Below are positions 18,373 to 28,292 of a stretch of DNA of 61,846 bases, piece by piece. Position numbers and translations under genes: made by a program. Origin of the DNA: an uncultured Prevotella sp. GTDB taxonomy: Bacteria > Bacillota_I > Bacilli_A > RFN20 > CAG-288. Below the pieces are notes generated by a model that was not told the origin of the DNA, did no database searches, and worked only from the letters and a program-made list of their open reading frames with translations. Location: positions 1 through 61,846 of the forward strand of contig CAVHUN010000066.1 in NCBI GenBank assembly GCA_963639175.1. Reading direction: 5' to 3'. Position 1 is the first letter of the stretch. The number at the start of each line of letters is the position of its first letter.

Positions 18373-21189
18373 TTAAATTTTATATTCAAGCATGTACCAA
18401 CTTGATTCATTAGAATTAATAATTTTAATTTTTAACTTATTATTTTGTTGTTCAATACTAATATCACTTACATTGTAATCATAAGCTGATGAATTAGAAG
18501 TAGTAGAACTTAAAACAGTAAAATATCCATAACCATTTGAATATTTATATGAATATGTAAAATCAATATCAATACTAACTCCAGTATCTAGATTACTTCC
18601 AGTTAATTTACCACTAGATGATGTTAACGATAATGATACATATTCTTTTCTTAGAATAAAATTAGTACTTGTATAACTCTTTCCATTTAAATATGTAGGT
18701 AAATTCTCATAATCAATCTTATCTGATTCATCTTTACTAAATTCTACTTTGTAATAAGCACCATTTTTATCTGAAAGATAAATTCCAACACTAGAATAAT
18801 CATCATTAATTTGTAATTTACCACCATAAATATATAAATAGTAGAAATCATCAAATTTTTGACCTTTATAATTATTTACTGTATCAACTAATTTATCTAC
18901 ATATACTCCACCATCTTTAAAGGTGATTTTTGCACTTGCAGAAGATGTTTCACCATTTAAATTTGTATATGTAATCTTTAATTCAGTTTCAGAAACAAAT
19001 TCAATTTCTTGAGAAGAGGTATCCCCTCTTTTTACATATTTTTTACCAACTAAATTATCAATTAATGTTTGTTTACTAATTGGAGCAATAATATTAATTG
19101 TATATACTTCAGTAGTTACAGAAGTTCCTTTAGCTCTTATTTTAAATCTATAAGAACCTATTGTTGTTCCAATTATTGAATAAGAATAACTACTTATTCC
19201 ATCAATATTACCATCTTGATATTGATAGACACTTAAACTATCAATTAATTGATCATTTTCATCAACTATTTCATAACTATAATCATTAGCATCATCACTA
19301 GGTAAAGCCTTTAATGAGAAATAAGAAGAATATTCATTTTGATGAACATTTCCAAAATCATTATTAGAAGGTTTATTATCAGTTATTTCTAAGCTTGTAA
19401 TATTACTCTTTTTAAATTCAACAGTAAATGAATAAGTTACTTTGTTTTTAGAAGAAGTTAATGTAAATGTAGTTGATCCTTCTTTTACAATAGCTTTATA
19501 AGTTCCATCTTCTTGTAATTCTCTAACAGTTTTAGCTGAGAATAATAAGATACCATCATTAGTAATAGTAGGAACATCAATATTTGTGTTATTAGCGCTA
19601 ATTTTTACTTCATCAATTCCACTATTTCCTAAACTATCATCAATCTTTAAAGGTAATGACTTATAAATTGGTAAGCTATAAGTCTTACTAGAGGCATTAT
19701 ATTCTCCACTAGTTCCACCAAATTTAGCTGTATCTGAATAATCATAGACACCTTCTTTACTAGTTCCTGATAAACAATTTACACCTAAACTTGTAAAATA
19801 ATATTTACTAAAGTCAATATAAGAAGAATTATTAATTGAATTATCTTCTAATTTATCTCCATATACTAAATTTGAAGAAGATAAACTATATTCAACTTTA
19901 TTAGTTGAAGAAGTAGAAGTTTGAGTAAATGTAAAACTTGAAATTGCATCATTTTCAAAATTAACATCTAATTTTAATAAATAAGAGATATCATCTTCTT
20001 TATAAGAAGAACTAATACTTAATAAAGAATCAGTGATATTAAATTTAGCGTTAGCATAACAACTTGAATCACCAAAATTAGTCAATTGATCACCTAAAGA
20101 AATACTTGAATCAAATAAATCTTGAATTAATCCACTAAGAGTATATGTAGTAGTGTTATTAAAATAGAAAATAGAATTTGCTTGTTTTAAATAATTATTT
20201 TCTTCACTTACACTGCTATTTGTTAATAAAGAATTAATATTTTTAGAACTATCATAACTAAATAAATAATATTTATTATCTTTTATACCAGAATAATAAT
20301 TTTCAATATTACCATTAGTATCTACACTTGCATAAGTGGTGTTATTAAATAAATTAAATGAATAATTAACTTGGTTTTCTTTTTTAGAATTATCATCTAA
20401 TTTAGTAGTAGTTGTTTTAGAAATAATATTTGCTTGTTTTAAAGAAGAATTCTCTTTTGAAATAGTAGAATCTAATTTAGTAAAGGCCTTTTGTTTATCT
20501 TCTTTATTTAAGTCAACAATATCAAAATCTGCACTTATTTTTACATTGTTACTATTATCATCATCAAATGAACAATTAGCTGAAATAGTAACATCTTTAC
20601 AATCCCCATTTCCAGTAATTAAACAGGTAGTATCATCAACATTTTCAATTGAAACAATTGAAGTTGATTGACTTGAATCTAAAAATGTAACACTAAATGA
20701 AACTGCAGGAGTCTTGTAATTTGGTGAAGTAACAACTTTACATTTAATTTGAATTCCTAAAGGAAGAATGTATTTTTTATTAGAAGCATCATAACTTATA
20801 TTTTCACCTTCAAATTCAATGCTTAGTTGTTCTGATTTAGGAAGCTTATAAGAAATAGTAATAGTATGAGTAGCTTTTAAAGAAGGATTAGCAATACTAG
20901 TAGCAGTAAATACTACACTTCCTTGTTCTATAGCTTTGACTTTACCATTTGAATCAATTGTTGCAATAGATTCATCAGAAGAAGTCCAACTTACTTTTGT
21001 ATTAGCAACTAAAGTAGTTTCTTGTCCAACTTGAAGTGTGTTAGCACCATTAATTTCAATATAACTCACTTCTTTTGAAGAAGTAGAATTAGATGAACTA
21101 GTTGAAGAATTATTTTTTGGATTACAACTAACTAAGCTAGTAATAAAAACAAACGAAGTTAATAAATAAGCAATTTTGTTCTTTTTCAT
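18373..21189 (-). CDS. large surface lipoprotein (938 aa) with N-terminal Big_2-like Ig domains; function unknown
   Basis: Lipobox SLVSC plus a Ser-rich tether. The stretch IEINGANTLQVGQETTLVAN...WTSSDESIATIDSNGKVKAIEQGSVVFTA is a typical Big_2 pattern. The rest is Asn/Ser/Tyr-rich beta-type sequence with no motif I recognise. Confidence 0.6.
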   Translation of the reverse strand: MKKNKIAYLLTSFVFITSLVSCNPKNNSSTSSSNSTSSKEVSYIEINGANTLQVGQETTLVANTKVSWTSSDESIATIDSNGKVKAIEQGSVVFTATSIANPSLKATHTITISYKLPKSEQLSIEFEGENISYDASNKKYILPLGIQIKCKVVTSPNYKTPAVSFSVTFLDSSQSTSIVSIENVDDTTCLITGNGDCKDVTISANCSFDDDNSNNVKISADFDIVDLNKEDKQKAFTKLDSTISKENSSLKQANIISKTTTTKLDDNSKKENQVNYSFNLFNNTTYASVDTNGNIENYYSGIKDNKYYLFSYDSSKNINSLLTNSSVSEENNYLKQANSIFYFNNTTTYTLSGLIQDLFDSSISLGDQLTNFGDSSCYANAKFNITDSLLSISSSYKEDDISYLLKLDVNFENDAISSFTFTQTSTSSTNKVEYSLSSSNLVYGDKLEDNSINNSSYIDFSKYYFTSLGVNCLSGTSKEGVYDYSDTAKFGGTSGEYNASSKTYSLPIYKSLPLKIDDSLGNSGIDEVKISANNTNIDVPTITNDGILLFSAKTVRELQEDGTYKAIVKEGSTTFTLTSSKNKVTYSFTVEFKKSNITSLEITDNKPSNNDFGNVHQNEYSSYFSLKALPSDDANDYSYEIVDENDQLIDSLSVYQYQDGNIDGISSYSYSIIGTTIGSYRFKIRAKGTSVTTEVYTINIIAPISKQTLIDNLVGKKYVKRGDTSSQEIEFVSETELKITYTNLNGETSSASAKITFKDGGVYVDKLVDTVNNYKGQKFDDFYYLYIYGGKLQINDDYSSVGIYLSDKNGAYYKVEFSKDESDKIDYENLPTYLNGKSYTSTNFILRKEYVSLSLTSSSGKLTGSNLDTGVSIDIDFTYSYKYSNGYGYFTVLSSTTSNSSAYDYNVSDISIEQQNNKLKIKIINSNESSWYMLEYKI

Positions 21190-21200
21190 AAATAATCTCC

Positions 21201-26512: not shown

Positions 26513-26531
26513 TTTTTATATCCTTCCAATC

Positions 26532-28292
26532 TTATATGTTAGTCTCGTTGACATTTTCAACTTTAATTTTAAATGGCATATCACTTCCATCATTATAAGA
26601 ATAATTAGCGTGGAAGAATTGATATCCATAAGTCAAAATATCAAATGGTTCTGATTGTTCATCAAACAATGTGTAATTTGTCATATATCCATTTGAATCA
26701 AATGTGTTAATTGAATTAGCTTCAATCAATCTAATTTGATCAAAATAATCAAAGCTTGCAGGTAATTGGAAAGAACTAGATTCAGTTTGATTATTAGAAA
26801 TAGGCATTAAAATAGCTTGATTATCTTCTAACATATTTCCATCCCATTCATAATTTGAAGTGTCATAATTTAATATTTGAGCCCCAGTTAATGGATTTGT
26901 AACAACTGTACATTTAAATATTCTTGAATCAATATGATAAATTCTTACACCAATTTTACTAGGTAAACTATTTCTATCATAGATAAAATTAGGACCATAT
27001 GTATCAATAGTGTTATTTCCATCAGGTGTATATAAATCAATTAATAAATATTCACTAAATGGATTAAATTCATATGTGAAATCTTTTGTTTTATTTGAAT
27101 TAACGCTAGCTTCAACTTCATTAGAAATTTCTTCATAATTAGAAGGAACAACAATTACAGAATGGTCGCTATTTAAAGAAACATTAGCAATGTTAATTTC
27201 AGAAGTACCATAAGCTACATAAGGAGTAATCCAACCAAGCAATAACTTAGAATAAGAATCTAAATCGCCGACATTTTGATCCATCATAGTTAATTCTCCA
27301 GCTGGATGATAAGCATTATCTGAAGAAGAATAATAATCATCTAAACCTAATAAATGACCAAATTCATGAACAAAAGTATGTGAATCAATTGTAATATTAT
27401 CCAAAGAAGAAATATCAGGGACATTATCTTTATCTCTAGAACAATATGAAGTGTACATCATATCAAAACTAGACCAAGAAAATCCTGATGTTGTAGGAAT
27501 TTCATCACTAGCAGGATTTTCACTATCTTTATAAACAATAGGAGATGTATTCCAATCCCAATAAGTAAAGTTCCAGAAGGCTTGATTTAATTTACTAACA
27601 TCAAACATAGGATCTTTTACTTGTTCAAGATAACCTTGAGTAGTCCAATCTAAATGATCATAAACTAAATAAACACCATCAATAGAACCATCTCTATTTT
27701 GATCGTAATCTTGTAAATTAATACCTTGATTATCTTGCGCCCATTTAACAGCTTCAGTTAATATTTTAGTAATAATAGTACCACTACTACCTTGGGTAAC
27801 ATCTTTTTCTGAACTAATTAAACTAGTAGCGTCAAACCAATCAGTAACTACCCCATCTAAATCAAACTTGCCATAGCTAGCTTGTTTATAAAATTGTTTA
27901 ACTGATTTAAAGCCTAATCCTTCTTCATTTTCTTCTCCAAAGAAAACCTTTTTAATATCGTTTCTAACTTTTTCAGTTTTATATTCATCTCCACCAGGTA
28001 AATGAACTGGAATAACTAATAAATTAGCCTTTCCAATACTAGGCATAACAGATTCATTGTTAGATAAAGTTCCAGATAATGTATTGTAATTATATTTTAA
28101 AGAAACTTTACTAGAAGGAATAAATCTTCCATTTGAGGAATAATTATTATCCTTATAAATCTTAATTTTAGCAGTGGCAGTAATATCTTTATTAACAGTA
28201 GATGATGATATAGAAGAACTTACACCATTATCGCAGCTTACTAGTACGCCAAGTAATCCTAAAGTTAGAATTTTTTTCAATCTTTTTAACAT
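26532..28292 (-). CDS. lipoprotein zinc metalloprotease, immune-inhibitor-A (M6)-like, 586 aa
   Basis: Lipobox VLVSC, HEFGHLLGLDDYY (His309 codon at 27366-27368), and DQNRDGSIDGV. It is a full-length paralogue of the 521-aa protein. Confidence 0.75.
   Translation of the reverse strand: MLKRLKKILTLGLLGVLVSCDNGVSSSISSSTVNKDITATAKIKIYKDNNYSSNGRFIPSSKVSLKYNYNTLSGTLSNNESVMPSIGKANLLVIPVHLPGGDEYKTEKVRNDIKKVFFGEENEEGLGFKSVKQFYKQASYGKFDLDGVVTDWFDATSLISSEKDVTQGSSGTIITKILTEAVKWAQDNQGINLQDYDQNRDGSIDGVYLVYDHLDWTTQGYLEQVKDPMFDVSKLNQAFWNFTYWDWNTSPIVYKDSENPASDEIPTTSGFSWSSFDMMYTSYCSRDKDNVPDISSLDNITIDSHTFVHEFGHLLGLDDYYSSSDNAYHPAGELTMMDQNVGDLDSYSKLLLGWITPYVAYGTSEINIANVSLNSDHSVIVVPSNYEEISNEVEASVNSNKTKDFTYEFNPFSEYLLIDLYTPDGNNTIDTYGPNFIYDRNSLPSKIGVRIYHIDSRIFKCTVVTNPLTGAQILNYDTSNYEWDGNMLEDNQAILMPISNNQTESSSFQLPASFDYFDQIRLIEANSINTFDSNGYMTNYTLFDEQSEPFDILTYGYQFFHANYSYNDGSDMPFKIKVENVNETNI

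Follow-up and report, generated by a model that had tools for sequence, protein, structure and literature searches.

Introduction

That a surface protease can work with dedicated lipoprotein partners is already known as a general idea. In lactococci, PrtP is a wall-anchored subtilisin-like serine protease and PrtM is a peptidyl-prolyl isomerase lipoprotein maturase; in mycobacteria, LprG and LppX are lipid-carrying lipoproteins of the LolA superfamily; and InhA, a protease of family M6, cleaves insect antibacterial peptides. The MIB-MIP system of mycoplasmas is said to capture and cleave immunoglobulins, an account reportedly due to Arfi et al. 2016. In C. difficile, the LolA-like lipoprotein GerS activates the amidase CwlD, as stated in a preprint (bioRxiv 10.1101/2025.01.13.632879). 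In this work we have analysed a block of five lipoprotein genes (18373-28292, minus strand), two coding for predicted M6 zinc metalloproteases (M6a and M6b) and three for large partners (P3, P4 and P5). It lies in a stretch of 61,846 nt, here called the window, that comprises positions 1 to 61,846 of contig CAVHUN010000066.1 (assembly GCA_963639175.1), deposited as an uncultured Prevotella sp. and placed by GTDB among the Bacilli_A (RFN20; CAG-288).

We found no names for the five proteins of the window in public sources. A first interpretation made from the DNA letters, which we call the sequence-only reading, knew of no described system of this composition, and we likewise found no description of such a block in the literature searched. 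What is new here is the fixed five-gene combination and an undescribed repeat domain in P3 and P4; the protease family was known before, and M6a and M6b are additions to it.

Gene organization of the block

The window has a base composition of about 27% G+C and reads cleanly with translation table 11. M6a (26532..28292; 586 aa, lipobox cysteine C20) and its paralogue M6b (24947..26512; 521 aa) code for the predicted InhA-like metalloproteases, and are followed on the same minus strand by P3 (23206..24945; 579 aa), with two beta-rich domains and an N-terminal part homologous to the P4 repeat, by P4 (21201..23204; 667 aa), with three tandem repeats of about 200 aa, and by P5 (18373..21189; 938 aa), headed by a Big_2 immunoglobulin (Ig)-like domain. 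The sizes of these five open reading frames (ORFs) and the gaps between them (19 nt between M6a and M6b, 1 nt between M6b and P3 and between P3 and P4, and 11 nt between P4 and P5) are exactly those given in the sequence-only reading, which had also assigned a ribosome-binding site to each downstream gene; the Shine-Dalgarno-like sequences TAGGAGA, GGAAGGA, AAGGAGG, AAGGAG and AAGGAGA do precede the five starts, from M6a to P5.

The same reading had bracketed the block with terminators and judged it to fit a single transcription unit, and the hairpins are present at both ends. The upstream flank in the window is infC-rpmI-rplT, and a terminator-like hairpin with a 10-bp stem and a T-run, found by scan, follows rplT (ORF 28480-28836) at 28440..28465 on the minus strand. 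Downstream, a second minus-strand hairpin (18290..18329) lies 43 nt past the P5 stop. The scan of the window revealed no terminator-like site on the minus strand within the block. In the window the downstream hairpin is followed by an insertion sequence (IS); since an identical hairpin occurs in L030, an IS-free relative with a P5 97% identical, the terminator is native and not derived from the IS. A weak candidate for an extended -10 element, TGaTAAACT (28335..28343, minus strand), can be read by eye in the leader. The block is established as a compact, terminator-bounded unit of five cistrons.

Each of the five N-termini consists of a signal peptide, a lipobox cysteine and a Ser/Thr/Asn-rich linker, as already pointed out from the letters; the signal peptides are basic and hydrophobic. 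Compared with the pattern [LVI][ASTV][GAS]C, the lipoboxes of M6a, M6b, P3, P4 and P5 read LVSC, LVSC, LTSC, LVSC and LVSC, respectively, and in each of the five family alignments the cysteine column does not vary. The products are predicted to be lipid-anchored on the outer face of the membrane, where they would be exposed at the surface.

Conservation of the five-gene block

When 185,579 species-representative genomes were scanned by profile, 16 loci were recovered, in records titled as uncultured Bacilli, 'Mollicutes' UMGS732, Clostridium sp. CAG:568, an Erysipelotrichaceae metagenome-assembled genome (MAG), and horse and rabbit MAGs. The order M6a-M6b-P3-P4-P5, on one strand and with minimal spacing, is kept in 16/16 of these genomes; the incomplete loci L009, L020 and L021 are truncated by contig ends only. 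The proteins have diverged considerably, with identities to the window of 46-74% for M6a, 46-78% for M6b, 34-71% for P3, 28-68% for P4 and 23-57% for P5, the fastest-evolving member, and the flanking genes differ wholly between loci (catalase, ferritin and ABC [ATP-binding cassette] genes in others, infC-rpmI-rplT in the window). A scan of metagenomes with the M6 profile returned 80 loci. Eleven of them show 50-65% M6a identity, and the full block is present in 10/10 of the contigs that are long enough. A variant with an M6a about 65% identical to that of the window was recovered ten times, on independent metagenome contigs, and the titles of two or more of these name the human gut. Within a set of 5.8 billion proteins, the relatives of P3 form only 16 clusters, and one cluster at 53% identity comprises 2,590 member sequences.

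The sequence-only reading had made its proposal depend on the five genes staying together in other genomes, and they do so in the 16 genomes and the ten contigs alike. The order is fixed in 26/26 informative loci despite diverged sequences and reshuffled flanks, which greatly exceeds what chance would give, and the block is therefore a selected unit. The accessory trio was found only with one M6 subclade, and among the loci examined there was no genome with dispersed P3-P5 genes, or with P3-P5 lacking the M6 pair.

The M6 protease pair

The Peptidase_M6 family PF05547 (gathering cut-off 22) matches M6a with 39.5 bits and M6b with 31.5 bits, and the NCBIfam M6-domain model TIGR03296 gives 92 bits (E=6e-26) and 89 bits (E=4e-25), respectively, below its curated cut-off. 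A profile built from the pair plus its orthologues matches the InhA structure 4yu5 (E=8.7e-5), where the alignment is limited to an N-terminal portion of the catalytic domain, and also brushes the zinc site of snapalysin; a single-sequence phmmer search of the proteases against solved structures produced no match. Because the TIGR03296 scores lie below the cut-off, and InhA is found by the profile and not by the single sequences, these comparisons place M6a and M6b in peptidase family M6 as a divergent subfamily. The first reading had recognised two M6/InhA-type paralogues, and this assignment stands: the two proteins share 31% identity over about 550-580 residues, and the zinc motifs HEFGHLLGLDDYY and HETGHFLGLSDYY are both present in the window, HEFGHLLGLDD at aa 309-319 of M6a (nt 27336-27368) and HETGHFLGLSD at aa 276-286 of M6b (nt 25655-25687).

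Across the orthologues, the zinc motif HExxHxxGxxD is kept in 21/22 aligned sequences, and HExxHxxGLxDYY, the MMD that follows it and D..DG.ID are invariant or nearly so. The last of these, described before as a calcium-loop-like motif, is invariant at D197, D201, G202 and D205 and aligns with the equivalent stretch of InhA; M6b bears an additional IDLDNDGVSD loop. HExxH is retained by M6b in every full-length orthologue. In a horse-faeces MAG (L013:6673-8376), the M6a orthologue has QETAHLMGLTDYQS (QETAH) in place of HExxH..DYY. This protein has probably lost catalysis and become a pseudo-protease, as judged from its motif, and the neighbouring M6b motif is intact. Proteolysis by M6a and M6b is a prediction from their conserved sites.

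The two types form separate clades, with 44-66% identity within each type, 30-41% between types, and type-specific insertions. From the identities between and within types, the duplication that gave M6a and M6b predates all the species sampled, and neither copy has been lost since.

The P3, P4 and P5 lipoproteins

Neither P3 nor P4 has a Pfam, NCBIfam or PDB sequence match above threshold, and for P4 there is no Pfam match at E<=1 across 16 orthologues, the LolA-like families included. We rejected the 18.9-bit match between P3 and the mycoplasma 'aromatic motif membrane protein', as it covers residues 1-76, which are only the signal peptide and a Ser-rich linker. Profile-profile comparison with hhalign relates the two proteins to each other: residues 72-333 of P3 align with residues 256-498 of P4 with 98.3-98.5% probability, and P3 aligns with P4 repeats 1-2 with 96.7%. 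Aligned with itself at a shift of one repeat, P4 gives 98% and resolves into repeats at about aa 34-232, 235-436 and 444-662. By these alignments, P3 and P4 are paralogues sharing a repeated domain of about 200 aa that has no Pfam family. P3, P4 and P5 had been set down as three orphans, but P3 and P4 are not independent of each other.

One species shows a P4 orthologue split between repeat 1 and repeats 2-3 (L002:11702-13693, L003:11702-13794 and L014:11537-13528), into two ORFs of 261 + 390 aa, with three ORFs in L003; decay of the gene, a natural split and an error of assembly would each account for this.

Reasonably confident AlphaFold2 models of P3 (predicted local distance difference test [pLDDT] 80.7, predicted template modelling score [pTM] 0.73) and P4 (pLDDT 83.4, pTM 0.68) are beta-rich, with a helix at the start of every domain. 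Foldseek searches of the PDB with P3 returned the LolA-like 4mxt (probability 1.00, TMt [template modelling score] 0.44), LolA 1iwl (0.97), RseB/MucB (0.84-0.89) and siderocalins (about 0.9), together with full-length alignments to TbpB with a probability of only about 0.2. With P4, the matches were the tandem-barrel DUF3598 protein 2o62 (0.98) and LolA 8veh, 8cgm and 4mxt (0.72-0.92, with 0.92 for 8veh). The matches are weak but agree in pointing to the LolA/RseB/lipocalin-like fold class; we use this name for the class of fold and do not assign the domain to the superfamily.

P5 matches PF02368 (Big_2) with 31.6 bits (cut-off 22.8) at aa 35-105, with one copy detected, and Big_2 is present in 17/17 orthologues. 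It is the sole Pfam match of the three distal proteins, which had indeed been said to show Big_2-like sequence in the 938-aa protein only. The P5 profile matches PDB chains within the Big_2 region only, and in hhalign comparisons nothing but the signal peptide relates P5 to P3 or P4.

Relatives outside the block

Searched exhaustively with a hidden Markov model of P4, 1.84 billion representative proteins yielded 74 matches only, among them about 28 full-length orthologues and a few dozen distant lipoproteins of 615-870 aa, which have tandem repeats and lack Pfam domains. Four distant P4 relatives could be located on contigs, and hmmsearch found no M6 protease among their visible neighbours; P0110 lies at a contig start, so that its upstream side is not visible. 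The idea that distant relatives would tie the P4 domain to proteolysis was dropped, as no M6 protease adjoins them. One of them stands singly between yebC and rplM. In L029:201-7173, P0126, a three-repeat P4 relative of 681 aa, is followed after about 1 nt by two ABC_membrane+ABC_tran exporter genes, and a gene of the choloylglycine-hydrolase family (CBAH) lies upstream of it, divergently oriented. The L029 context is a hint at hydrophobic ligands as something the new domain may deal with.

On the protease side, 38 metagenome loci show 23-33% M6 identity and hold mostly M6 lipoproteins, often in tandem arrays of 2-3, and none of these 38 loci has P3/P4 neighbours. Arrays of M6 lipoproteins at about 25-33% identity and without P3-P5 were seen in L044, L045, L050, L052, L053, L056, L058, L072 and L074, on low- to mid-GC contigs from gut, rumen and digester. 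It appears to be common, then, for membrane-anchored M6 proteases to have duplicated repeatedly. The sequence-only reading had proposed a protease pair: the pair is there, but it is not peculiar to the block, as related M6 tandem arrays are common without the accessory genes.

Two further loci, L065:7772-13987 and L071:7671-13904, contain a different triad, conserved and translationally coupled, of a lipoprotein (692/728 aa), an M6 lipoprotein (about 480 aa) and another lipoprotein (863/875 aa), and the two triads are 33-38% identical to each other. The large lipoproteins that flank M6 genes in L065, L071 and L068 gave matches to P3, P4 and P5 that are driven by the signal peptide, the best having 56% probability, to P5.

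Neighbouring genes in the window

Two paralogous lipoproteins of 773 aa (14270-16591, minus strand) and 765 aa (11808-14105, minus strand), each with a weak Flg_new_2/Rib-like signal and 38-40% identical to each other, are encoded beyond P5. Homologues of this pair follow P5 at a gap of 128-188 nt in L006, L009, L012 and L017 and of 69 nt in L016, and one homologue precedes M6a in L019. The pair is a loosely linked, separately transcribed neighbour and not part of the core, and may be a semi-linked sixth component of a surface-protein island.

An IS1634-family element (16630-18268) with 18-nt terminal inverted repeats (16630-16647 and 18251-18268) and a transposase ORF on the plus strand (16808-18232; NF033559, 136 bits) separates the P5 terminator from the 773-aa gene. 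In L030, which lacks the element, the next lipoprotein gene starts about 85 nt past the same terminator; as the IS is missing at the same site in L030, its insertion is recent and strain-specific. The contigs of the close relatives L001 and L030 end about 80-220 nt past P5.

Elsewhere in the window, a likely Wadjet anti-plasmid locus occupies 43577-50257 on the minus strand, with JetA (48794-50257; Pfam E=1e-67), an SMC/SbcC-like protein of 1135 aa (44756-48163) and two small ORFs that could be JetB and JetD (48173-48790 and 43577-44623). Genes of glycogen type, for a starch/glycogen synthase and a GH13 enzyme with CBM48, lie at 39885-41312 and 51191-53308 on the minus strand. A complete ABC importer cassette, phosphate-transporter-like, with a PBP_like_2 binding protein, two permeases and an ATPase, is found at 6678-11040 on the plus strand, that is, on the strand opposite to the lipoprotein island and upstream of it.

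Discussion

We propose that the products of the block form an extracellular, lipid-anchored assembly for proteolysis, in which non-catalytic subunits would bind or regulate, and that it probably serves in nutrient acquisition; to this proposal we give about even chances. Since the proteases are the only recognisable chemistry in the block, extracellular proteolysis would be its core activity. The retention of both paralogues, the translational coupling and the confinement of the trio to one M6 subclade argue that the products function together, most simply in a membrane-anchored assembly. In this proposal, a single operon would supply the assembly, sited on the external side of the cell membrane, and catalysis would fall to the anciently duplicated pair of InhA-like M6 zinc endopeptidases, which, as both copies are retained in every species, probably form a heteromer or have split specificities. 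The non-catalytic part would consist of three co-evolving lipoproteins, P3 and P4, as putative tandem open barrels of the LolA/lipocalin-like type, and the large, Ig-fronted P5. These three would most likely bind, scaffold or regulate, holding substrates or ligands near the proteases or controlling the proteases themselves, and their fold class and separate occurrence elsewhere are compatible with ligand or substrate binding, with hydrophobic carriage or with enzyme regulation. The assembly would serve the breakdown of extracellular proteins for nutrients in host-associated Bacilli.

Several observations weigh against this proposal. Both proteases fall short of the TIGR03296 cut-off of 110.8 bits, and the M6a of L013, which lacks the first zinc-binding histidine, indicates that two active proteases are not always required. 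A consensus scan of the 148-nt leader found no sigma-70-like promoter on the minus strand. The remaining 830 or so residues of P5 gave no assignable family or fold in relaxed Pfam scans of four segments. The fold matches of P3 and P4 are weak (TM <=0.44), were obtained with multi-domain models and specify no ligand. Proteins with the LolA-like fold are known for carriage of lipids or lipoproteins and for enzyme regulation, and not for capture of protein substrates. Finally, the distant P4 relatives that stand alone or beside ABC exporters indicate that the domain has a function independent of proteases.

A more specific form of the proposal is one heteromeric surface machine, a counterpart in monoderms of the MIB-MIP, TbpB or Sus-type capture systems, in which P3 and P4, as a new class of tandem LolA/lipocalin-like barrel proteins, and P5 would capture a specific host or dietary macromolecule, or a lipid-protein particle, and feed it to a heterodimeric M6 pair. 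We regard this form as rather unlikely; if true, prevalent uncultured Bacilli of the gut would possess in it a dedicated means of obtaining nutrients or of disarming host factors.

Could the block serve in evasion of host defences? The proteases would then cleave antimicrobial peptides, secretory IgA or mucus proteins and P3-P5 would capture host proteins, making the block a functional analogue of MIB-MIP or of the TbpB-type surface lipoproteins. The proteases do fall in the family of InhA, and the block is confined to host-associated (gut, faecal) lineages, by the record titles and the human-gut contigs. P5 evolves fastest, as expected of an exposed, host-facing component, but this fits any exposed protein. 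The full-length TbpB alignments of P3 point in the same direction, but with probabilities that are low, and no host ligand can be inferred; nor has the block any sequence homology to MIB, MIP, Protein M or TbpB. We consider this explanation unlikely.

P3 and P4 could instead be dedicated regulators, chaperones or inhibitors of the M6 proteases, keeping them latent or activating them, which we hold to be improbable. PrtM matures PrtP, and beta-barrel inhibitors are encoded beside metzincins. The coupling of the cistrons and the exclusive 1:1 co-occurrence of P3/P4 orthologues with the M6 subclade agree with such a role, but related M6 lipoproteins elsewhere manage without partners of this kind, and proteins of 579 and 667 aa with two to three domains are very large for inhibitors or chaperones. 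The GerS preprint (bioRxiv 10.1101/2025.01.13.632879) offers a precedent in Firmicutes, where a LolA-like lipoprotein activates an enzyme allosterically.

A function in the uptake of hydrophobic nutrients seems quite improbable to us. Here P3 and P4 would carry lipids, sterols, bile-acid-like molecules or acylated peptides, and the proteases would remove the protein coat of the lipid-protein particles in which these occur. Their best fold matches, to LolA, LolA-like proteins, RseB/MucB and lipocalins, are to binders of hydrophobic ligands, and the P4 relative of L029 is coupled to an ABC exporter pair beside the choloylglycine-hydrolase-family gene. However, the fold matches are weak, ABC genes were met beside one relative only and are of exporter type, the lipid auxotrophy of the hosts is only assumed, and the constant presence of two proteases and of P5 is left unexplained.

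That the five genes are independent neighbours, co-located by descent and not by selection, would accord with the separate occurrence of P4-type domains and M6 lipoproteins elsewhere, but is very improbable given that order, orientation and 1-20-nt spacing are kept in 26/26 informative loci at protein identities down to 23-50% and with fully reshuffled flanking genes.

What could a lipid-anchored proteolytic assembly mean for these bacteria? The block is a signature locus of uncultured Bacilli from human and animal guts and faeces, about whose feeding and interaction with the host almost nothing is known. With its divergent, membrane-anchored M6 pair it is a candidate for extracellular proteolysis in these Bacilli, and it offers a clean case of co-evolution between proteases and non-proteases.

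Among the described systems, the proteases are closest to the InhA/PrtV enzymes of MEROPS family M6 (4yu5/4yu6), with which they share the Pfam catalytic domain, the HExxHxxGxxD motif, whose Asp is presumed to be the third zinc ligand, and D..DG.ID. In contrast to the InhA-type enzymes, which are secreted and of about 800 aa, M6a and M6b are lipoproteins of 520-590 aa; no match to them was detected outside residues 108-288 of the 756-residue InhA chain, and M6a is always paired with M6b, with the three accessory genes behind them. The tandem arrays of L044, L052, L053, L056 and L074, themselves undescribed, belong to the same divergent family (25-33% identity), with a lipobox and 2-3 adjacent paralogues, whereas P3, P4 and P5 are missing from the arrays, and L065 and L071 have other large lipoproteins instead.

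The lactococcal PrtP/PrtM pair likewise joins a nutritional surface protease to an adjacent, dedicated lipoprotein partner, although the families and the number of genes in the block are unrelated to it. GerS, LprG and LppX are lipid-anchored and have an open beta-barrel of the LolA-like fold, which P3 and P4 match weakly; unlike them, P3 and P4 have 2-3 tandem domains and no LolA-like Pfam similarity.

The sequence-only reading had proposed substrate capture and likened the block to MIB-MIP and Sus-like systems; capture is a putative role, and the likeness stays an analogy, no component being homologous to those systems. Mycoplasma MIB-MIP resembles the block in its logic, with adjacent genes for a surface binder and a protease in host-associated Bacilli/Mollicutes of reduced genome. 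MIP is a serine protease and MIB has an unrelated fold; the block, for its part, has metalloproteases and five genes, and gives no evidence of Ig binding. No MIB or MIP homologues are present in it, since Pfam and NCBIfam matches above threshold are to M6 and Big_2 only. With the TbpB-type and the Bacteroidetes Sus-like systems the block would share a concept, that of lipoproteins with beta-barrel domains capturing macromolecules at the surface. Those are diderm systems coupled to TonB-dependent transporters, and no family of TonB-dependent transporters, SusD or TbpB was found in the block or in the Pfam-scanned flanks of the window. If its partners are receptors for substrates or ligands, the block would represent a new surface-capture architecture in single-membrane bacteria.

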